Shown: in pieces, positions 15,990-41,248 of the stretch
Layout: the number at the start of each line of letters is the position of its first letter
Position numbering within the stretch: the first letter of the stretch is position 1
Virus record (IMG/VR): IMGVR_UViG_3300036852_000116
Location: 1 to 55,340 of that record
DNA: 55,340 bases
From: a virus
Taxonomy: Duplodnaviria > Caudoviricetes
Strand: one strand, 5' to 3'
The notes under the pieces: generated by a model
What the model saw: the letters and a program-made list of their open reading frames with translations, nothing else
What the model was told of the DNA's origin: nothing
The model's database searches: none
Made by a program: the position numbers and the translations under genes

Positions 15990-16283
15990 CTAATAAGGGA
16001 TCATACTCTTTAACATCCAATCGGCATTATCTAATCCTAGCCTTATCTCACCACCTCTACCGTATAGAACTCCTGACCCACCACCTCTACCACCGTGACC
16101 TTGTACTTCATCTAATGAAACAAATTTCCAGGTTTCTAGATCTGGGTTTTCTCTGAGCAAGCGCATAGCTTCTTGTTGAGTTGCACTTACGCAAACTCTA
16201 TGTTCCCCATCAGGTGCGTTTCTCATCCACTCCAACATCTGAGTTGTTTTGCCGCCCCGTCTGGGAGCTGTGATGATTTTCAT
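15990..16283 (-). CDS. Small P-loop-like protein
   Basis: MKIITAPRRGGKTT Walker-A-like start; may be cut short by a TAG. Confidence 0.5.
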   Translation of the reverse strand: MKIITAPRRGGKTTQMLEWMRNAPDGEHRVCVSATQQEAMRLLRENPDLETWKFVSLDEVQGHGGRGGGSGVLYGRGGEIRLGLDNADWMLKSMIPY

Positions 16284-16578
16284 CTCGACTCTTCCTTGTG
16301 ATTTGTAAGATTCTTTGTTTGGTAACTCCAAACACCTTACCAAGAGTATCACTACCAGTTCCAGCCCAATACAACATAATCACTATCTCATCCCTACTCA
16401 GGAGTTGTCCACAGTGAGGGCAAGATAGTTTAATCAACCCTTTCTTGGGCTTGTAGTGAGCACAAGATAAGCAGAACTGACTATAGCTCTGACCTTTCTT
16501 CTTACCACATCTGGAACAGTTAGGATAATAGTAGTTTCTAGTTCCCGGCTTACGTAGTTTTAGTGGCCTTCTCCCCAA
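16210..16578 (-). CDS. Zn-finger/HTH hypothetical protein
   Basis: Three CxxC pairs followed by an HTH-like LGKVFGVTKQRILQI. Confidence 0.5.
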   Translation of the reverse strand: MGRRPLKLRKPGTRNYYYPNCSRCGKKKGQSYSQFCLSCAHYKPKKGLIKLSCPHCGQLLSRDEIVIMLYWAGTGSDTLGKVFGVTKQRILQITRKSRDENHHSSQTGRQNNSDVGVDEKRT

Positions 16579-19019
16579 TGATCACCTACCGTTATATCTA
16601 CTTGAATCGGGATGGTTGGTGTGTATCCGAAGTAGCTCTTTAAGGGCAGATTCTCCATTGTGGATTTAATTATCTCTGTGGCCGTCTGGACATAATCATC
16701 ATCAATTTCAAACAGCACAGCATCATGGACGTTGCCGATTATGCTCGCGCGTGATGTATCCAATTTCTGATTGAGGAGTACCATCGAAAGAACCGTGAGG
16801 TCCGAAGCAAATCCCTGAACCGGTGCATTGATAGCTTCTCTTTCGGCTTGACCTTGGAGGAACTCGTCTCCAGAATTGATTGAAGGAAGGTGTCGAACCC
16901 TTCCGATGGGCGAAGAGACATGTTGAAGGTTACGGACGAGCCGCCTTTGACGATCGTGCCACGGAAGTAAGGCTTTGAACTGGTTAAAGAAAGCCTTTCG
17001 ATACTCTTTGGCTTCCTCTTCAGAAACTTTGGTTTGGAATTTTTCATCAGCATATACCCTAAACTTCTTTGGTCCCATCCCATACAGGAAACCGAAGTTG
17101 ACTGCCTTCGCTAGCTTGCGTTCTTCCTTGGTGATGTCCTTCGGATCCTTACCAGTTATCTTTACCGCCGTTTCCAGATGGGCGTCTCGTCCTGATCTAA
17201 ATATTTCTGTAAGTTCTCTATCTCGAGACACCATTGCGGCAATTCTAAGTTCGATTTGGCTAAAGTCAGCCTCGACAAACCTCCTCTCACGTTTCCCTTG
17301 TGCAACCCGAACAGCGTTGGTTTTTCGATTGATACCGATGATTCCTCGAATAAGAACGTTCCTGGGCACCTGTTGCATGTTAGAACTAAGTCTTCCAGTA
17401 ACAGTACCCGAGAGATTGTATGAGGTGAAAAGTCGTGGTTTACCAGCAGCTGCAGTGCGGGCCAGCCAAGAACGACTGTAGGTCGATTCATACTTCTGCC
17501 ATTTCCTGAGCTCCATGAGAAGTCCCACAGCTCTGTGCTTCGTCTTGAGTTTCAGTAAGACTGCTTCCTTAGTAGATGGTTTTCCACTCTTCGGAGTATA
17601 TTCGATAACTGGCAGCTCAAGAATTTCAAAGAAGAACTTGCCTAGGAAGTTACCTGAGAACTTAATTGCTGGTGATCTTATATCCTCGGGAACATATTGC
17701 AACATCTTCTGTCTGGTCCGCTCGATGCGTTCTAAAATCTTCTCGTGCCTCGCGCGTAAGCGCCTCATATCTACTGGGAAGCCATTCGCTTCTATCTCAA
17801 CAAACTCGTTGCACGCTGGCATTACCAAGAGTTTGAAGATTCTTAGAAGTCGTGGTCGTTCCTTAAGCTGAGACCTAAAGAGATGGTAGAGTCGGAGGGT
17901 ATAATCAGTATCTTTCCCGTTGTAAGTTGCCAGAGGACCGAGGGGGTGCGGTCTTCTGAAGTCAATATCATCTTCATATGCGTCGGCACCCAAGAAAGTA
18001 CGCGCAAGGGGTTTAAGCCCGTTTGGTCGGTTCTCATCAAGAAGATGTGCTGCGAGTAGTGTATCGAAGGAGGCACGTAGATTCACTCCCTTCCTGCGCA
18101 TTCCTGACATATCAAACTTAGCGTTATGACCGATCATCTTCTTGCCTTCTAGAGCGACATTCAGAGCTGAGTAGACTTCCTTGATAGGAATGTCCCACTT
18201 CACCTCTGGATGTTCTAGGGCCACAACATAACTAGTTCCGGGTTCCCACGTGAAGGAACAGGTGAGAATGATCCACTTGGGATGCCAGACATGAAGTCCA
18301 CCTTTCTTCGCTTCCTTCCCGGATGCTTGATATCCTGGTCCCCATGACTCGATGTCGAAGGAAATTGGAGTATCCACAGACTCGATCAATTTTAAGAACT
18401 TGGCAAGGCTCTTACTAGATCGGATGATATAACTCTTGGTCTGTGGTCGTGTTTCTTCTCCCGATACTATCCGCGCAAGCGTGCGTAGGTCAGATCTAAA
18501 CATCTCCTCCCATGCTGGTGTACGAATAACCGCAGCTGGGTGGATGGTGGGGAAGTAAGAGATGCCATTCTTCTTGACTAAGGCTCCTCTCCTCCTCATG
18601 ATTCCTTTTACGCCTAGCGTTGCCTGTAGCGCGGCATTTCCAAGTGGAACCACGAACTCAGGCTGAACGGCCCCAATTTCATCCAGTAGGTAATGATTGC
18701 ATGTTCTGATTTCAGTCCTGGTAGGTGTTCGATTGTCCGGAGGTCTACACCTACAAGCATTTGTAACGTAAACACTCTCGCGGGGTAAGCCCACTTCGGA
18801 TAGTACAGCATCCAGATACTTGCCCGCCTTCCCTGCAAACGGCTTGGCTTCATCATCTTCCCTGTACCCGGGAGCTTCACCCACGAGCATAACCCTGCTG
18901 GGAACAGGCCCATCTCCCATAACGCAGACCGACTGCGCGGATAGATGGAGAGGGCATTCCTCGCAATTGGGATTGCGGTATGGCTCCCAAACTTTAAGTC
19001 GCGCATCTTCAGTTACCAT
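16560..19019 (-). CDS. Family A DNA polymerase with N-terminal family-4 uracil-DNA glycosylase and 3'-5' exonuclease domains
   Basis: UDG: CEECPL, GEAPG, CRPPDNR, HPAA. Exonuclease: FDIE, HNAKFD, YNGKD. Polymerase: TGRLSS, ADFSQIELR, RKLAKAVNFG, VHDA. Confidence 0.95.
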   Translation of the reverse strand: MVTEDARLKVWEPYRNPNCEECPLHLSAQSVCVMGDGPVPSRVMLVGEAPGYREDDEAKPFAGKAGKYLDAVLSEVGLPRESVYVTNACRCRPPDNRTPTRTEIRTCNHYLLDEIGAVQPEFVVPLGNAALQATLGVKGIMRRRGALVKKNGISYFPTIHPAAVIRTPAWEEMFRSDLRTLARIVSGEETRPQTKSYIIRSSKSLAKFLKLIESVDTPISFDIESWGPGYQASGKEAKKGGLHVWHPKWIILTCSFTWEPGTSYVVALEHPEVKWDIPIKEVYSALNVALEGKKMIGHNAKFDMSGMRRKGVNLRASFDTLLAAHLLDENRPNGLKPLARTFLGADAYEDDIDFRRPHPLGPLATYNGKDTDYTLRLYHLFRSQLKERPRLLRIFKLLVMPACNEFVEIEANGFPVDMRRLRARHEKILERIERTRQKMLQYVPEDIRSPAIKFSGNFLGKFFFEILELPVIEYTPKSGKPSTKEAVLLKLKTKHRAVGLLMELRKWQKYESTYSRSWLARTAAAGKPRLFTSYNLSGTVTGRLSSNMQQVPRNVLIRGIIGINRKTNAVRVAQGKRERRFVEADFSQIELRIAAMVSRDRELTEIFRSGRDAHLETAVKITGKDPKDITKEERKLAKAVNFGFLYGMGPKKFRVYADEKFQTKVSEEEAKEYRKAFFNQFKALLPWHDRQRRLVRNLQHVSSPIGRVRHLPSINSGDEFLQGQAEREAINAPVQGFASDLTVLSMVLLNQKLDTSRASIIGNVHDAVLFEIDDDYVQTATEIIKSTMENLPLKSYFGYTPTIPIQVDITVGDHWGEGH

Positions 19020-19458
19020 CTACGGTCCTGACATCACTAGGAAACTGGTGTACTATAATCCCGGCATCCACCATCAATCGCAGACCTCTAGGATCACGAT
19101 AAGAGTGATGATAAACTACTCGGGTGATACCTGCTTCGATGATAAGTGAAGCGCAATTTCCACAGGGAGCGATAGTTGTATAGAGAGTTGTCCCACAACT
19201 TCCTCCTGATATGCCCTGTGAATATCGAATAGCGTTGTCTTCAGCATGAATTGTTCGAGTGCATCCTCCGTGAGTTCCAATAATACACCCGGCCACGTCA
19301 CAGTGAGCTTCTCCGGGCCGTGAACCAACGTAGCCCGAACTAATGATCCGTGAGTCGAGACATAGAATTGCACCGACCTCAGCTCGTGGACATGTTCCTC
19401 GTTTGGCAACAACATGGGCAATCTCCATTAGCATATGATCACGGCTGATTCGAGCCAT
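19009..19458 (-). CDS. dCMP deaminase
   Basis: HAEDNAI and PCGNC zinc motifs, RGTCPRAEVGA; start moved to MARISRD. Confidence 0.92.
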   Translation of the reverse strand: MARISRDHMLMEIAHVVAKRGTCPRAEVGAILCLDSRIISSGYVGSRPGEAHCDVAGCIIGTHGGCTRTIHAEDNAIRYSQGISGGSCGTTLYTTIAPCGNCASLIIEAGITRVVYHHSYRDPRGLRLMVDAGIIVHQFPSDVRTVDGN

Positions 19459-19459
19459 A

Positions 19460-20128
19460 TCAGAATACTCCAGCCACGTCCTTCTGGTAAACATGGAGAG
19501 ATCCGATCCAGTGGGTAAATCGACCTGCTGGGATTCCAGTCTCTGCCGCCACGTATTCCTGAAGTTTCCGTGAGAGGTATTGGTCATTCTCAAAGTGTGT
19601 TGCGAAGTCTGCCGATCGTTGCATATATCTCATATGCAATTGCCCGCCACGATTGATGAAGAAGTATCCTAGTGAACATGGAACTCTCTTCTTTCCCAAT
19701 CTGAGTGGGTCCGTGAAACTCTCCCATACAGATAAGAAAAGCTGTCGACTTTCGGGATGAACTTTAAGTTCTTTAATGATGTAAGGTAATGTGTCTGAGT
19801 AGCGTTCTCCATAAGAATATCCAAACCCACGATCAGCAAATTCTTGCCATACTTCTGGTCTGAGTTTCCAAGCCTCAGCTGCACCTGGCCAGACGAAGTT
19901 TATCCTCTCTTTAAACTCAACATCTGCCCACGGTTGGTTGGGATTGAGATCTTCCAATCTTGGGGCCAGAATCATGTATTCATAGTCTAGAAGTTCACGA
20001 GTATCGTAATCTGGATCATTGGAGATATCCTTATCCTGCATAGTCTGTGGATGTACACTAACACCAAGCTCTGCCAGGTCCCGCTTGATCTCGTTGTTAG
20101 CCTGCTTGAAGTCCGAGAAGGATCTCAT
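19460..20128 (-). CDS. Thymidylate-synthase-fold enzyme, likely dCMP (hydroxy)methylase
   Basis: SRQ, catalytic PC, QRSADFATHFEND with Asp at the E. coli ThyA N177 position (as in T4 gp42), GSLHVY. Confidence 0.8.
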   Translation of the reverse strand: MRSFSDFKQANNEIKRDLAELGVSVHPQTMQDKDISNDPDYDTRELLDYEYMILAPRLEDLNPNQPWADVEFKERINFVWPGAAEAWKLRPEVWQEFADRGFGYSYGERYSDTLPYIIKELKVHPESRQLFLSVWESFTDPLRLGKKRVPCSLGYFFINRGGQLHMRYMQRSADFATHFENDQYLSRKLQEYVAAETGIPAGRFTHWIGSLHVYQKDVAGVF

Positions 20129-21011
20129 CTTCTTCGACGTCCTGTTCTGATTCAGTAACGATATCTAGTGATCGCTTGCCCTTACCCGTGAGAACAAGTT
20201 CGCTTGCCTCCCGAGAAGTCAGCCTACGGTTGATTTTCTTGCGTGCTTCCCATCCTTTCAATGTAAGATTGTCCACAGGGAGCGATCTGTAGATGCCCTG
20301 CTCTACTCGATCTAGTTTTTGCTTCCATCTCCTGGCTGCTCTCCACGGAATATCATCTGCCGGACGATTCATGTAGTCGATGTAGTATTGGATTGACTCT
20401 GCGATCCTGTCCTCGCGCGCGAGATATTTATCGACTAAGTTCCACCTGGTCAGTGGTACTAGAACCTCTACCATCTTAATGATGAAGTTAGCACAGTGTA
20501 CTTCTAAAGCTATCTCTTCTTGTGGGATTTTGAGTCTCTCAGCAATTCTTCGAGCAACGAAGTCCGAGAGAGCGTAGTCAGCAACTCCTGAGAAGCCAAG
20601 AGATTGGGCGCGAGTATATAGAGAGAGGACGGGTTTCGGCTTGCGACGGAAGCTAAAACCCATAAGGCAATTTCCCCACTGGTGTACGGCCTTCTTCCCA
20701 GTAAAATTAGGTGGGACGATCTTGAAGGTCCAGAGTGCATCATATGTTTTCACATTCCCAGCATTGTTGATCCACGCATGGAGACTCTCAACATCTACGT
20801 ACTGTCCGGTGAACTTCGACCACTTGGTGATTGTAAGGTCAATATCGCCCAGATCAAAATCGAATACAGCACTATCAGCACGCAGGAGATTACCAAACGA
20901 ATGGACGATGTTTCGCTGATAGAAATCGATAACACCAGGCTTGTCGTCAAGCATACTGAAGTAAGCAGATTTCCAAGCAGTTTTGATATCTGGATGTGTC
21001 TCAATGATCAC
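20097..21011 (-). CDS. Divergent second thymidylate-synthase-fold protein
   Basis: GNCLMGFSF followed by LSLYTRAQSLGFSGVADY matches the TS core spacing; lacks RSxD and HxY; GTG start overlaps the upstream TGA. Confidence 0.55.
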   Translation of the reverse strand: MIIETHPDIKTAWKSAYFSMLDDKPGVIDFYQRNIVHSFGNLLRADSAVFDFDLGDIDLTITKWSKFTGQYVDVESLHAWINNAGNVKTYDALWTFKIVPPNFTGKKAVHQWGNCLMGFSFRRKPKPVLSLYTRAQSLGFSGVADYALSDFVARRIAERLKIPQEEIALEVHCANFIIKMVEVLVPLTRWNLVDKYLAREDRIAESIQYYIDYMNRPADDIPWRAARRWKQKLDRVEQGIYRSLPVDNLTLKGWEARKKINRRLTSREASELVLTGKGKRSLDIVTESEQDVEEDEILLGLQAG

Positions 21012-21280
21012 CTGCCACTCTCCGCTTGACGCTGACGACGAAGATCGGCGGCTGCCAGAGCCTGAGTTACTAACTCTAAGAATTCGCTTTTCTTGAGGAT
21101 TCCTAGCTGAATCAGCACGGTAAGACAAACCGAGACTTCTGCATGCATCACGCTAGGTTCACCATACTGCCTGATCAGTCTATCCCTGAATGGCATCTTA
21201 TCATCAGCTGGTATTCCATACGCCATATCACTCTGTGGGAATGGGACATAGATGTGGGGTTTGGGTCGATTGGGTGCCAT
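21008..21280 (-). CDS. Hypothetical protein in the nucleotide operon
   Basis: Translationally coupled on both sides. Confidence 0.65.
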   Translation of the reverse strand: MAPNRPKPHIYVPFPQSDMAYGIPADDKMPFRDRLIRQYGEPSVMHAEVSVCLTVLIQLGILKKSEFLELVTQALAAADLRRQRQAESGR

Positions 21281-21693
21281 CAGTAGTTGCTCTCCTGTCT
21301 AAAAAGATTTACTTCAGATTTCTTGAAATATAGCTTGTAGAGATCCTCTGCAGTCAACCCAGATTTGATAGCCCATCTGATGTAAAAGTGGAAACCATCA
21401 GCCATCTCTTCGAAGTAGTGATCCTCATCCGTGATCACTGGAGTTTGTTTCCATGGTTTATTCTTCAAGCAGTTGGTGGCTTCGGAGATTTCTTCAACAA
21501 TACGGTAAGCAGCGTCCTTGAGATACCGCTGGAATCCATAATCGTTGAGATCTCTACTAGGTGGGCTTGGGAACCCGTTGGCGGTTTCAATGGATTCGTA
21601 CTGATCCTCAAGCTCTTGTTGTCGGTTAAAAATGTTTTGGAGCCAGTCGCCATCTTCGGGCGCCTCTGTGTCAATATCTTTGATGTTAACCAT
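21280..21693 (-). CDS. All-alpha dimeric dUTPase/dCTPase (MazG superfamily)
   Basis: EEISEA...KPWK...EEMADGFHF...K..VN..RQ motifs; start coupled to the kinase stop. Confidence 0.85.
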   Translation of the reverse strand: MVNIKDIDTEAPEDGDWLQNIFNRQQELEDQYESIETANGFPSPPSRDLNDYGFQRYLKDAAYRIVEEISEATNCLKNKPWKQTPVITDEDHYFEEMADGFHFYIRWAIKSGLTAEDLYKLYFKKSEVNLFRQESNY

Positions 21694-22232
21694 TATACGT
21701 AGATATACCTCATCACTCGCTTCAGGAGAGGTTGTATTCCTTCGGTCCAATCATACTTCATAAAGTTTCCATTGTAGTGAGGTGCTTCTTCTAACATAAG
21801 TTTGTCATAGGCAATCAATAGATCTTTAAACTTCTCATGTACTCCTATCATCTGGTCATTGGTCTTAGAATCTCTGTCGATAATTTGTGCGGGCGGGCGA
21901 CAGTAGATCAAGAAGGCATATTTCCTCAAGAACTCTTGCACATACTTTCGAACTGCTACTGGCATATCCATCTTGTTACGAAGCACAGGACCGTAAACAA
22001 ACTCAGGGTAGAAGAACCTATCGTGAACCACCACCTTTTCCATAGGGTTCTCAGCTAGTTTCTCCATCCACCATGTGGGCATGGGTGATTTACCTGGAGT
22101 GTGATCTCGGTTGTACCCAACTATTAGATGTCCATTATCTCCCAGGAATTCCATCAGTTGGTCAGCGAGAGTTGTCTTCCCAGAACCATCCATCCCATCG
22201 ATCAAGATTCTAGCATAAGGTCTAAATTTCAT
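21693..22232 (-). CDS. Deoxynucleoside monophosphate kinase (TMK-like)
   Basis: IDGMDGSGKTT P-loop, HDRF motif; AGGAGG RBS before ATG 22232. Confidence 0.85.
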   Translation of the reverse strand: MKFRPYARILIDGMDGSGKTTLADQLMEFLGDNGHLIVGYNRDHTPGKSPMPTWWMEKLAENPMEKVVVHDRFFYPEFVYGPVLRNKMDMPVAVRKYVQEFLRKYAFLIYCRPPAQIIDRDSKTNDQMIGVHEKFKDLLIAYDKLMLEEAPHYNGNFMKYDWTEGIQPLLKRVMRYIYV

Positions 22233-22250
22233 GGCGCCTCCTGTGGTTCC

Positions 22251-22279
22251 ATTATAATACATCTAAGATCATTTGTCAA
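22251..22279 (-). promoter_or_regulatory. Sigma70-type promoter heading the nucleotide/polymerase operon
   Basis: TTGACA-17-TATAAT on the minus strand. Confidence 0.85.
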
Positions 22280-23709
22280 TGTCCATTGGGACGGAGAATC
22301 CTTGGATCATGAACGATAGCGTGAGCTAAATCACCTTTATCTTTCAGGATGGTAAGTGTAAGTGCATCGATAGTTCTGGGTACGACCAAGTGATAGTAAG
22401 TAACCTTATTCCTCTGACCGTGACGATGGAGTCTATCCTGTGCCTGAACGTAATTGGCGTAGGCATAGTCCAAGCTGTAAAAGATAGCCACAGAAGACGC
22501 AGTGAGATCAATCCCAAGGCTGCCCGCCTGAATCTGCGCAATGAACACTTTAGTTCTATCATCATTCTGGAACCTCTCAATTAAACTGTCGCGTTGGTTG
22601 TGCGGGACACTTCCGGACAGTATTAAGGGCTCAATCTTGAACTTCTTCTTGATCGCCTCTTCTATCCGTTCAATATCCTTGCGAAACCTAACGAAGATGA
22701 CAACTTTCTTCTGCTGTGCGATAATATCATCTAACAGGTCCATGCAAACGTTAAGCTTGCTGTTATCAAATACGCGGATCTGATCGTTAACGTCTTTGAT
22801 GAAGCCCGAGGTGATCTGTGAGAGGCGGAGAATCTTGACCAGTACGATAGCTGCTGTGGCATGAGTCTCCTCGATCTCAATGATCATCTCTTTCGCCATC
22901 TTCCGGTAATAGTCCATAGCTTTCTGTCCAAGTTCGACCGGGACAGTTACGAACACTTTCTCTGGGAGGTCGATGGCCTGCTCTTTCTTGATGCGGAAAG
23001 TATTGCCCCGTACCTTCCCCACAAGTTCGTCTAGGTGTTTGTATCCTTTGAGCTGGTACCTTCCCCACCCGCCCCAAATCCCAAACCGGTTCTTGAAGCG
23101 ATACCAGTTACTCCCAAAGATCGCTGAGTCTATGAACCGAAATTGCCCAAATATGTCGAGAGGGCTCTTTGTAATTGGAGTACCAGTGAGAACAAGACGT
23201 TGTTCGGCGAATCCTCCAATTCTAGCAGCCGCTTTAGACTGCTTCGCTGTTGAAGACTTAATTCGATGTCCTTCGTCACAGATAACGAGGTCTGGTCCCC
23301 ACTTCTCCAAGAGATCTTCAATTCTATTTCTACCGTCTCCACGCCATATGCCTTCATAGTTAATGATCAACCAATCTTGTGTAGGCTGTGGGCTCCTGAT
23401 CATGCGTCTTATAGAGGCAGCACGTTCAGGAGTTGAACCTGTCAGGACTCTCACTCGTGCGAAGAATGGAAGGTGTTGCTTGATCTGTCTCTGCCACACT
23501 CCGATCACAGATAATGGGCAGATTACTAGCACCCGCTTGACTTCGTAGTTGTGATAACCTATGCCAGCCCAGTCGATCGCTACCTTCGTCTTGCCCGTGC
23601 CCATCTCCATGAAGAGCCCGGCCTTACCATCTAGTGTCTGGATCTTGTTGAGTGCCCTGAGTTGATATCTGTATGGCTTAGTCTTGAACTTATACTTAAC
23701 TTTCGACAC
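22276..23709 (-). CDS. SNF2-family helicase
   Basis: MGTGKT, DEGH, LTGTP, GIDL, QAQDRLHRHGQ. Confidence 0.92.
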   Translation of the reverse strand: MSKVKYKFKTKPYRYQLRALNKIQTLDGKAGLFMEMGTGKTKVAIDWAGIGYHNYEVKRVLVICPLSVIGVWQRQIKQHLPFFARVRVLTGSTPERAASIRRMIRSPQPTQDWLIINYEGIWRGDGRNRIEDLLEKWGPDLVICDEGHRIKSSTAKQSKAAARIGGFAEQRLVLTGTPITKSPLDIFGQFRFIDSAIFGSNWYRFKNRFGIWGGWGRYQLKGYKHLDELVGKVRGNTFRIKKEQAIDLPEKVFVTVPVELGQKAMDYYRKMAKEMIIEIEETHATAAIVLVKILRLSQITSGFIKDVNDQIRVFDNSKLNVCMDLLDDIIAQQKKVVIFVRFRKDIERIEEAIKKKFKIEPLILSGSVPHNQRDSLIERFQNDDRTKVFIAQIQAGSLGIDLTASSVAIFYSLDYAYANYVQAQDRLHRHGQRNKVTYYHLVVPRTIDALTLTILKDKGDLAHAIVHDPRILRPNGH

Positions 23710-24133
23710 GTGGGAATACCTTAACTCTCACTCCTGCATATCTAGATATCTTGATCATATCAACTGTACCACGAGAGACAGACAAGTCACGATGGAAAGC
23801 AAGAACCATGCCATCTTCACCTGTCTTCTCCATCCATTTCAGCATTAGTCTCAGTTGTTTACGGTTGCGTCTTGGACCGGCAGGCTTTCCATACTTTTCC
23901 CATTCTGCGGGAGTAGACTTCATTGGTGTACTACTAATCCATGCCCAATATCTACTACACTGATCAGCACCTGGTGCTTCACCTTGATAAAGTTTGGTGA
24001 TTCCATATTTCTGATCTACTTTGGCAAGTATTGCCATCATATAGTTGAAGTCACGTTTACCCTCTCGAGTAGGACCAACTTCAAATAAGAAATCATTAGC
24101 CCAATGACGATCACCACAGACTAAGACAATCAA
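23696..24133 (-). CDS. SLOG/DUF2493-like protein
   Basis: VLVCGDR, GEAPGAD, AGPRRN, SRGT motifs. Confidence 0.75.
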   Translation of the reverse strand: MIVLVCGDRHWANDFLFEVGPTREGKRDFNYMMAILAKVDQKYGITKLYQGEAPGADQCSRYWAWISSTPMKSTPAEWEKYGKPAGPRRNRKQLRLMLKWMEKTGEDGMVLAFHRDLSVSRGTVDMIKISRYAGVRVKVFPRVES

Positions 24134-24327
24134 GTTGCTTCCTCGTCTACGACCTCAACATCCTCATCCATAATAGGATTAACTGAGCAAACTGGATATG
24201 GACGTGGATATCCATGACGGAAGACGTTCTCCACAGCTCCCGCTCTTGTCGCTGTTTGTTGTTTGCCATAGTTGATCCTCACCACGGGATTCTTGCAATG
24301 AGTACAGATCTCTTTCTCAGACATCAA
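24130..24327 (-). CDS. Hypothetical Zn-binding protein
   Basis: CxxC motif; coupled overlaps with neighbours. Confidence 0.55.
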   Translation of the reverse strand: MMSEKEICTHCKNPVVRINYGKQQTATRAGAVENVFRHGYPRPYPVCSVNPIMDEDVEVVDEEAT

Positions 24328-40181: not shown

Positions 40182-40315
40182 GGTAGTCTTCAGGCTTAGG
40201 GTTCAAGGCTCAGACAATGAGCAGGAAGCAGTGGATATGGCGACAGATTACTTCTGTGGAGGTGACTACTATAGACAAGTGACTCAGATGGAAACAGAAG
40301 TCATTGAGGTGCGAA

Positions 40316-41248
40316 GTGTCCAAGAATCTGAGGCCACAGAGGCTCGATGATTTTATTGGGCAGGAGCATATCAAGGATGTTCTCCGAGTCTCCATCGAGG
40401 CGGCAAGGAAACAGAATCGGGTTCTGGATCATGTTCTGCTCAATGGCCCACCGGGATTGGGTAAGACAACTTTAGCGAGGATTATTGCTCGGGAGATGCA
40501 GTGGCGGATGCGGACCACAATCGGTTCGTCACTGAAGACGGCGAAAGATATAAAGTTCTTGGCATTGACTATATTGTCAGTGAAGAAGTCTATTATCTTC
40601 ATTGATGAAGTCCACAGGGTGGGCAAGCCAGCACAGGAGGTACTCTATCCGATACTGGAAGATGGAATCTGGTACTACAAGGTGGGCCAGTCAGTGACGG
40701 AAGCTGATCTAGGCCCATTAACTGTGGTTGGGGCTACTACTAACGCGGGTAGATTGGAACAGCCATTTGTGGATAGATTTGGTCTCCAGTTCCAGATGGA
40801 GTATTACACAGATGAGGAGATGTGCCGGGTAGTTCAGACTTCAGTGAGTAAGATAGGGATGGACATCGGGATGGAAGGTATGATGGAGGTGGTCAAGAGA
40901 TGCAGGGCTACTCCCAGAATAGCGAACCATCTGCTGATGAGGCTTAGAGATTACAATGTGGTCAGAGGTATGGAGCTCAACCGTGAGAATGTAGCAGGGA
41001 TACTGTGGAAGCGGTTCCATATTGACAGTATGGGATTGAATAGCCTCGATAGGCGGGTTCTTCGGGTATTGGACCAGGCTGTGGGTCCAGTCGGTGTCCA
41101 TACGATTGCCGACTTGGTGAATGAGGAAGCAGATTCTATCGAGTCTAGGGTTGAGCCATATCTCATGAGAATGGGAATGGTAGTAAGAGAGAGTAGAGGA
41201 AGGATGATTACTGATACCGGAAGGGCACACTTGGAGGCAGTAACTTGA
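40316..41248 (+). CDS. ruvB: RuvB-like Holliday junction branch-migration ATPase
   Basis: LRPQRLDDFIGQ, DHVLLNGPPGLGKTTLA, FIDEVHR, GATT, DRFG, TPRIANHLL, EPYL, RGR. Confidence 0.92.
   Translation: MSKNLRPQRLDDFIGQEHIKDVLRVSIEAARKQNRVLDHVLLNGPPGLGKTTLARIIAREMQWRMRTTIGSSLKTAKDIKFLALTILSVKKSIIFIDEVHRVGKPAQEVLYPILEDGIWYYKVGQSVTEADLGPLTVVGATTNAGRLEQPFVDRFGLQFQMEYYTDEEMCRVVQTSVSKIGMDIGMEGMMEVVKRCRATPRIANHLLMRLRDYNVVRGMELNRENVAGILWKRFHIDSMGLNSLDRRVLRVLDQAVGPVGVHTIADLVNEEADSIESRVEPYLMRMGMVVRESRGRMITDTGRAHLEAVT

Follow-up and report, generated by a model that had tools for sequence, protein, structure and literature searches.

We describe TS2, a divergent protein with the predicted fold of thymidylate synthase (TS), which is encoded directly upstream of a second TS homologue, TS1, in IMG/VR virus record IMGVR_UViG_3300036852_000116 (55,340 nucleotides (nt), analysed over its whole length and referred to here as the window). 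The window is an apparently complete or near-complete phage genome, in which genes for a terminase, capsid protein, primase–helicase, ligase and family A polymerase are present. A tyrosine, a cysteine and an arginine of TS2 are invariant throughout its family, and a TS1-type gene accompanies TS2 at every testable locus of a TS2-based sample. We propose, with a probability of roughly 0.4, that TS2 is an active, Cys-dependent second enzyme of a cytosine-nucleotide modification pathway rather than a dead copy, and the two proteins probably work together on DNA building blocks. The TS2 family is a new, large and uncharacterized variant of a well-known fold. The features central to this proposal are as follows.

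20097–21011, minus strand: TS2, a 304-amino-acid (aa) divergent TS-fold protein (open reading frame (ORF), GTG start, structural model, conservation)
TS2 regions: TS-like core, residues ~1–192; conserved helical part, residues 193–251, including R228 and K232; non-conserved tail, residues 252–304
20667–20669, minus strand: codon of TS2 Cys115, placed on the TS catalytic cysteine (invariance and three profile comparisons)
20577–20612, minus strand: Arg134–Asp145 segment of TS2 (TRAQSLGFSGVAD), counterpart of TS R166...N177 (conservation and hhalign register)
19460–20128, minus strand: TS1, a 222-aa non-canonical TS homologue with Asp182 at the Asn177 position (PF00303, 1.4e-14)

TS2 is predicted to share the fold of thymidylate synthase

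Searches with TS2 found no matching family in Pfam (E ≤ 0.01) or NCBIfam and no matching PDB sequence, either with phmmer or with the family profile (E ≤ 10). Its only PHROG match was phrog_13667, of 'unknown function'. An exhaustive HMMER search gave 130 representative clusters of TS2 homologues, and 119 sequences were aligned, with a mean column identity of 16%. The AlphaFold2 model built from this family alignment has a predicted local distance difference test score (pLDDT) of 92.7 and a predicted template modelling score of 0.90. When the model was compared with the PDB by Foldseek, all 11 matches at E ≤ 0.001 were TS-family chains, led by 9iqu (AfhB of phage HY126; E 1.7e-5) and followed by MilA, T4 dCMP hydroxymethylase and TS. 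VIA-align likewise gave a Z score of 15.2 to 9iqu (root-mean-square deviation 3.5 Å, 183 of 217 residues aligned), 14.4 to MilA and ~11 to classical TS, with Z ≥ 8 for 396 of 1000 chains. Among structural matches in BFVD, the TS2-like protein of Pseudomonas phage PMBT14 ranked third (1.7e-9). The fold test that the initial annotation of this DNA had proposed therefore came out TS-like and, on its predicted structure, TS2 is a member of the TS/dCMP hydroxymethylase superfamily at the level of the fold.

Comparison of family profiles by hhalign linked TS2 to TS1 (E 9.7e-5, probability 58%) and set C115, R134 and D145 of TS2 on C151, R171 and D182 of TS1. Two sub-families, A5 and A4, repeated this Cys/Arg/Asp register independently, with probabilities of 19% and 24%. 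In all three profile comparisons Cys115 falls on the Pro-Cys of the TS1 family. Tyr71 is aligned by hhalign to TS1 Tyr104, two residues before Tyr106, the probable equivalent of the TS residue Tyr94. The resemblance of TS2 to TS is not due to chance. Its description as a TS paralog thus holds at the level of fold and profile but not in direct sequence comparison, in which BLASTP of TS2 against TS1 found nothing.

Key residues of TS2 are invariant in a highly divergent family

The initial annotation, made from the sequence alone, had pointed to a Cys at the catalytic position, an Arg and an Asp 11 residues later, and all three are present. The GNCL motif spans residues 113–116 and contains C115, the Arg is residue 134 and the Asp is residue 145, exactly 11 positions on. 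Y71, C115 and R134 are invariant in all 119 aligned homologues, and G113, D145 and R228 are kept in at least 90% of them; at position 145, 110 sequences have Asp and the other nine have Glu. Further conserved positions are D53, R/K63, W64, D73, W112, R122, P127, S/T133, R/K232 and L249. Profile alignments also confirmed that the RSxD and HxY nucleotide-binding residues have been lost: the first motif is replaced by T133-R134-A135-Q136-S137 (family consensus S-R-T-x-Y) and the second by I177/K179 (family consensus Q-x-H).

TS2 had further been called degenerate, a term that we find misleading, because no substitution of its Cys, Arg or Tyr occurs among the 119 sequences despite the low mean column identity, which is not the pattern of a dead paralog. 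A precedent for a divergent paralog encoded alongside a conventional copy and dependent on it is the trypanosomatid deoxyhypusine synthase described in passages of PMC3663545. In that case the paralog is catalytically dead and activates the enzyme through hetero-oligomerization, whereas the nucleophile and key binding residues of TS2 are invariant rather than lost.

Known members of the superfamily share some of these features and lack others. Canonical ThyA (PF00303) has the fold in common with TS2, and equivalents of its Cys146, Arg166 and probably Tyr94 are kept; by contrast, there is no sequence match, Ser167, Asp169, His207 and Tyr209 are lost, Asn177 is replaced by Asp, and no interface Arg is conserved. 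The T4 gp42 dCMP hydroxymethylase (Foldseek 1.8e-4 to 5.8e-4) and the CMP hydroxymethylase MilA resemble TS2 in having the TS fold, a Cys nucleophile and an Asp at the specificity position. Unlike TS2, which PF00303 does not match, they keep both RSxD and HxY, and three residues before the Cys they have an acidic residue where TS2 has Trp. AfhB, the dCMP hydroxylase of Escherichia coli phage HY126 (9iqu, 9iqc), is the best structural match of both TS2 and TS1. Like TS2, it is a small TS-fold phage protein that has the catalytic Cys and carries Asp where ThyA has Asn177. The substrate of AfhB is dCMP, and its sequence identity to TS2 is 10–11%. The passages of PMC13326640 that deal with AfhB-type enzymes describe no paired second TS-fold gene.

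TS1 is probably a dCMP-modifying enzyme

The best PDB sequence match of TS1 is 9iqu (9e-15), to which its model (pLDDT 93.5) also aligns by Foldseek at 2.7e-16. TS1 retains the Cys, RSxD and HxY, with Asp174 at the 169 position. In alignments to Enterococcus TS, AfhB and the ThyA of phage Huwbert, its invariant Asp182 sits on ThyA Asn177, instead of the Asn of an ordinary thymidylate synthase. Passages of PMC13326640 and PMC8670742 describe the change from Asn177 to Asp as a switch of specificity from dUMP to dCMP. On this residue pattern, TS1 is not a canonical ThyA and probably modifies dCMP rather than converting dUMP to dTMP; we infer that its product would be 5-methyl- or 5-hydroxymethyl-dCMP.

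A third product, 5-hydroxy-dCMP, was considered and rejected for TS1. The signature of 5-hydroxy-dCMP synthases given in passages of PMC13326640 is a change of Asp169 to Asn, and TS1 keeps Asp174 instead of Asn. Such synthases hydroxylate in an O2-dependent reaction with a flavin cofactor. This change, found in AfhB, RB69 gp48 and DLP3 gp80, is likewise not present in TS2, which has Ser137 at that position (Tyr in the family). TS1 also has an Arg three residues N-terminal of its catalytic Cys.

The neighbourhood of TS1 is of a described type. In the available text of bioRxiv 10.1101/2024.12.05.627091, an Asp177 TS together with deaminase, pyrophosphohydrolase and PolA genes marks phages with modified cytosine, and the deaminase can yield dTTP from 5-methyl-dCTP; the module in the window fits this arrangement. 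The dCMP methyltransferase modules of the 5-methylcytosine phages Xp12 and PaMx74, described in the same text, similarly place an Asp177-type TS beside a deaminase and a pyrophosphohydrolase. The Xp12 TS is 29% identical to TS1 over 160 residues, and neither of its neighbours, a HAD hydrolase and a 339-aa ORF, is related to TS2 (hhalign 0.1–0.3%). For PaMx74, thyA and a pyrophosphohydrolase are the only genes annotated under the TS match and, from annotation alone, there is no TS2-like gene. By these sequence comparisons, the pair of TS1-type and TS2 genes is a lineage separate from Xp12 and PaMx74. The module in the window is also mirrored in T4, which has a dCTPase, a dCMP hydroxymethylase, a dNMP kinase and a dCMP deaminase, in part as described in passages of PMC13326640.

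TS2 genes are coupled to TS1-type genes

TS2 lies in a tight minus-strand operon that runs from an SNF2 helicase through a kinase, a pyrophosphohydrolase, a 90-aa ORF, TS2, TS1 and a deaminase to a fusion of uracil-DNA glycosylase (UDG), exonuclease and PolA domains. TS2 and TS1 share 32 nt (20097–20128), which are read in different frames as the end of TS2 and the start of TS1. Among actinophage relatives the overlap is either 4 nt, as in KimJongPhill, SheckWes and BillDoor, or the genes simply adjoin each other.

We examined the coupling from both sides, in samples in which some loci are near-duplicates or share a contig, such that counts do not represent independent events. The TS2-based sample consisted of 71 IMG/VR loci, 8 from close relatives and 63 from the actinophage-like sub-family. 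A TS1-type gene follows TS2 on the same strand in 70 of them, and the remaining locus ends at a contig edge (70 of 70 testable loci). This supports a functional link between TS2 and the TS gene beside it, as the initial annotation had suggested. In the reciprocal sample of 80 TS1-type loci, an upstream TS2 was found by hidden Markov model in 63, by motif in a divergent ORF in 4 and by a weak hhalign match in 1. With one locus lacking upstream sequence, TS2 is present within 4 kb of the TS1-type gene in 68 of 79 testable loci and missing from 11. A kinase, MazG or deaminase gene directly abuts TS1 in three of these 11. A tree built from 135 TS1-type sequences places those without TS2 in two small groups nested among paired ones. 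The 11 unpaired loci and the nesting of these two clades suggest that TS1 does not need TS2.

The slot upstream of a TS1-type gene can also hold other genes. At one of the 11 loci without TS2, L094:2549–3433, it is filled by another PF00303 homologue (6.4e-15), and in the near-identical contigs L084, L086, L087 and L088 (2373–3908) by a 512-aa ORF with no Pfam match.

The two genes do not diverge together. Across 94 loci, identity to the window's TS2 and identity to the window's TS1 are correlated with r = 0.31. TS2 proteins 59–63% identical to that of the window occur with TS1 proteins that are either 53–59% or 28–32% identical, the latter at five distinct loci; conversely, TS1 proteins ~50% identical to that of the window occur with TS2 proteins ~30% identical. 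Partner swaps are clear when loci L005 and L007–L011 are compared with L006, L020, L023 and L028.

These data bear on the possibility, raised in the initial annotation, of an asymmetric TS1/TS2 heterodimer in which TS2 is a non-catalytic or half-catalytic subunit. TS1 could in this case supply the TS2 pocket with its interface Arg128, which is equivalent to Arg126′; alternatively, TS2 could tune the activity or product of TS1. The constant company of a TS1-type gene and the invariable order of TS2 before TS1, with stop and start codons that frequently overlap, are what such a complex would lead one to expect. Classical TS active sites, moreover, take arginines from the partner subunit. Profile alignments show no conserved Arg in the TS2 family where TS1 has the invariant Arg128, and a TS2 homodimer would therefore miss the donated arginine. 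To our knowledge, a partner subunit of this kind would make the first heteromeric TS-family enzyme. The TS1-type genes that lack TS2 within 4 kb, in two nested clades, and the reassortment of partners argue against an obligate heterodimer, and an invariant Cys, Arg and Tyr would not be expected in a purely structural subunit. Complex prediction for TS1 with residues 1–262 of TS2 gave a score of 0.00 in both runs (mark, 0.32), was run without controls and speaks neither for nor against binding. We regard the heterodimer as possible but somewhat doubtful, and do not favour it.

The TS2–TS1 pair is widespread in phages

By tblastn, relatives of TS2 were found in 81 phage records, including phages of Gordonia, Mycobacterium (among them Muddy, gp47), Streptomyces, Microbacterium and Curtobacterium. 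All six actinophage records examined carry helicase, kinase, dUTPase/MazG, TS2, TS, (deaminase) and Pol I genes in that order; the gene in the helicase slot of Curtobacterium phage Shrew is annotated as an ASCE ATPase, and the gene that separates TS from Pol I in Muddy is annotated as hypothetical. In each of these six records the TS that adjoins TS2 belongs to the TS1 type and carries RVPC[ST]LGY and, at position 177, [ND]D. The arrangement of TS2 followed by TS1 was seen in nine of nine phage records examined, and phages whose hosts are Actinobacteria, Clostridium, Serratia and Pseudomonas share the gene order kinase, NTP pyrophosphatase, TS2, TS1, deaminase, PolA. Microbacterium phage Huwbert (L003:4869–7913) encodes three consecutive TS-fold proteins, a TS2-type gp65, a TS1-type gp67 and, in addition, a canonical ThyA, gp68, which means that the pair is not simply the thymidylate synthase.

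Outside the actinophages, gp21 of Clostridium phage CPAS-15 (L015:5208–5957) matches the TS2 profile over its full length (hhalign 98.4%), and its label 'colanic acid biosynthesis glycosyltransferase WcaC' is, by this match, probably wrong. Serratia phage Opt-155 and Pseudomonas phage PMBT14 have more divergent TS2 proteins (46% and 28% probability) with the same Y...C...R...D pattern. TS2 is annotated as hypothetical in eight of the nine phage records examined, the ninth being CPAS-15. A few GenBank records name TS2-like proteins 'pyrimidine hmase synthase', and the fold relation has therefore already been noticed by some annotators. A paired second TS-fold phage protein was not described in the literature searched, which comprised the main text of freely accessible papers.

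A proposed second enzyme of cytosine-nucleotide modification

The asymmetry between TS2 and TS1, the reassortment of their lineages and the invariant nucleophile lead us to favour a second enzyme that depends on the TS1 reaction, and make a dead paralog or an obligate co-evolved heterodimer less favoured. In TS, Arg166 binds the phosphate. By analogy with TS, TS2 would act within the pre-replicative pyrimidine module of the phage, with Cys115 adding to C6 of a cytosine nucleotide and Arg134 holding the phosphate. Asp145 would read the N3/N4 face, as does the Asp that dCMP-specific TS homologues have in place of Asn177, and may mark specificity for cytosine even in so divergent a pocket. Tyr71 would take the place of Tyr94, described as the general base of TS in passages of PMC8670742. 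The sugar, phosphate and cofactor site appears to have been rebuilt, because counterparts of Ser167, Asp169, His207 and Tyr209 are missing and new conserved basic residues are found at positions 63, 122, 228 and 232; such a rebuilt pocket means that TS2 probably takes another nucleotide form or co-substrate than TS1. The most economical candidate for its substrate would be the putative TS1 product, 5-methyl- or 5-hydroxymethyl-dCMP. A more specific version, which we consider unlikely, is that the TS2 family carries out a second, undescribed Cys-dependent reaction on a cytosine nucleotide, for example on the 5-hydroxymethyl or 5-methyl product of TS1 through a C6 adduct.

Several observations weigh against a second active enzyme. 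PF00303 was detected in none of the 119 family members at E ≤ 0.1, the profile–profile probabilities are only modest (58%, 19% and 24%), and counterparts of Ser167, Asp169, His207 and Tyr209 are missing from TS2 in profile alignments. For Xp12 and PaMx74, a single TS homologue without a TS2 neighbour suffices to make 5-methyl-dCMP, and the simplest cytosine modification can therefore do without a second enzyme. Pfam searches of 55 further ORFs in the window found no glycosyltransferase, carbamoyltransferase, aGPT-Pplase or 5-hmdU DNA kinase. Non-canonical bases in phages that carry the pair were not reported in the literature searched. In addition, passages of one genome announcement (PMC10353413) assign the module to thymine synthesis, with the two genes that separate TS from the dUTPase left unnamed.

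TS2 could alternatively bind a pyrimidine nucleotide without turnover, as a sensor, an allosteric regulator, a scaffold for dNTP synthesis or a decoy directed against host thymidylate metabolism. This would accommodate the loss of RSxD, HxY and all Pfam-level similarity, the position of the gene in mid-operon among nucleotide-metabolism genes and the confinement of the family to viruses among the rows with taxa. It is harder to reconcile with the fact that none of the 119 sequences has lost the nucleophilic Cys, or the Tyr and Arg that are catalytic in TS, and the range of hosts, which spans Actinobacteria, Clostridium and Proteobacteria, is a poor fit to a host-specific decoy. We consider a non-catalytic binder improbable.

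The initial annotation had also suggested an enzyme that acts on DNA, on the strength of a basic C-terminal extension. The family alignment effectively stops near residue 251. Residues 252–283 are indeed basic (10 K/R, 4 D/E), but residues 284–304 are acidic (0 K/R, 7 D/E), giving the tail a net charge of −1; the tail as a whole (252–304) has a pLDDT of 56–63, and with a presence in only ~17–29% of the alignment rows it is missing from most of the family. His207 and Tyr209 of TS hold the deoxyribose 3′-OH, and we know of no TS-fold enzyme that acts on DNA. Modification of cytosines in a polynucleotide, DNA or RNA, with the basic segment as a grip, would fit the loss of these 3′-OH-holding residues and the basic stretch, but is very improbable given a tail that is not conserved and ends acidic, structural neighbours that are all mononucleotide enzymes, and the invariance of Arg134, the equivalent of the phosphate-binding Arg166.

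Nearly all phage pyrimidine modifications known so far begin with a TS homologue, namely 5-hydroxymethylcytosine, 5-methylcytosine, 5-hydroxymethyluracil and, recently, 5-hydroxycytosine. Here, phages that infect at least three bacterial phyla have a second TS-fold gene, invisible to Pfam, which is linked to a cytosine-type TS homologue. An active TS2 would mean that this module has a function beyond the 'thymine synthesis' assigned to it in genome announcements. Muddy and other phages in practical use might then bring with them chemistry that matters for restriction evasion, for sequencing bias and for the discovery of enzymes. Were the second reaction to prove true, hundreds of pair-carrying phages would contain or pass through an undescribed pyrimidine. 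Besides many Gordonia phages and phages of Clostridium, Serratia and Pseudomonas, these include Muddy (gp47/gp46), a therapeutic mycobacteriophage.

Genomic context of the module

The remaining genes of the module are listed below with their profile matches; counts of homologues refer to the 161 loci examined.

16560–19019, minus strand: UDG-domain/3′–5′ exonuclease/family A DNA polymerase fusion, end of the module (PF00476 6.6e-81; PF03167 1.4e-30; PF01612 4.2e-13)
19009–19593, minus strand: dCMP/cytidine deaminase-family gene (PF00383 1.7e-19; homologues in 105 of 161 loci)
21008–21280, minus strand: 90-aa ORF directly upstream of TS2 (no Pfam, PHROG or NCBIfam match)
21280–21750, minus strand: all-alpha NTP pyrophosphohydrolase, dUTPase_2/MazG-like (PF08761 7.9e-11; phrog_12184 2.7e-31; homologues in 123 of 161 loci)
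21693–22262, minus strand: P-loop nucleotide kinase, thymidylate-kinase-like (PF02223 1.6e-6; phrog_761 6.8e-15; homologues in 92 of 161 loci)
22276–23709, minus strand: SNF2-family helicase, head of the conserved module (PF00176 8e-29; PF00271 7.5e-19)

The GTG start of TS2 overlaps the stop of the 90-aa ORF, and the lengths of the 120 listed TS2 homologues (275–326 aa) are consistent with the choice of this start. The 90-aa ORF is kept only in 11 loci of close relatives, each time immediately 5′ of TS2, and the Gordonia phages BillDoor and SheckWes have small unnamed ORFs at the same site. At the other end of the module, the UDG domain is N-terminal in the PolA fusion; passages of PMC13697223 (2026) tie some UDG–PolA fusions to phages with modified thymidine.

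Just 5′ of the SNF2 helicase lies a gene for a SLOG-family protein (23696–24133, minus strand; YAcAr/YspA-like; PF10686 6.7e-7; phrog_289), of which no homologue was found in the 161 loci. A megablast of 16000–24200 against phage records gave no match, and a tRNA scan of the window found none. Between 34450 and 45150, long ORFs are sparse and lie on both strands, GC skew reaches its maximum for the window (0.2–0.3), and the sole gene recognized in it encodes a RuvB-like ATPase (40304–41248).

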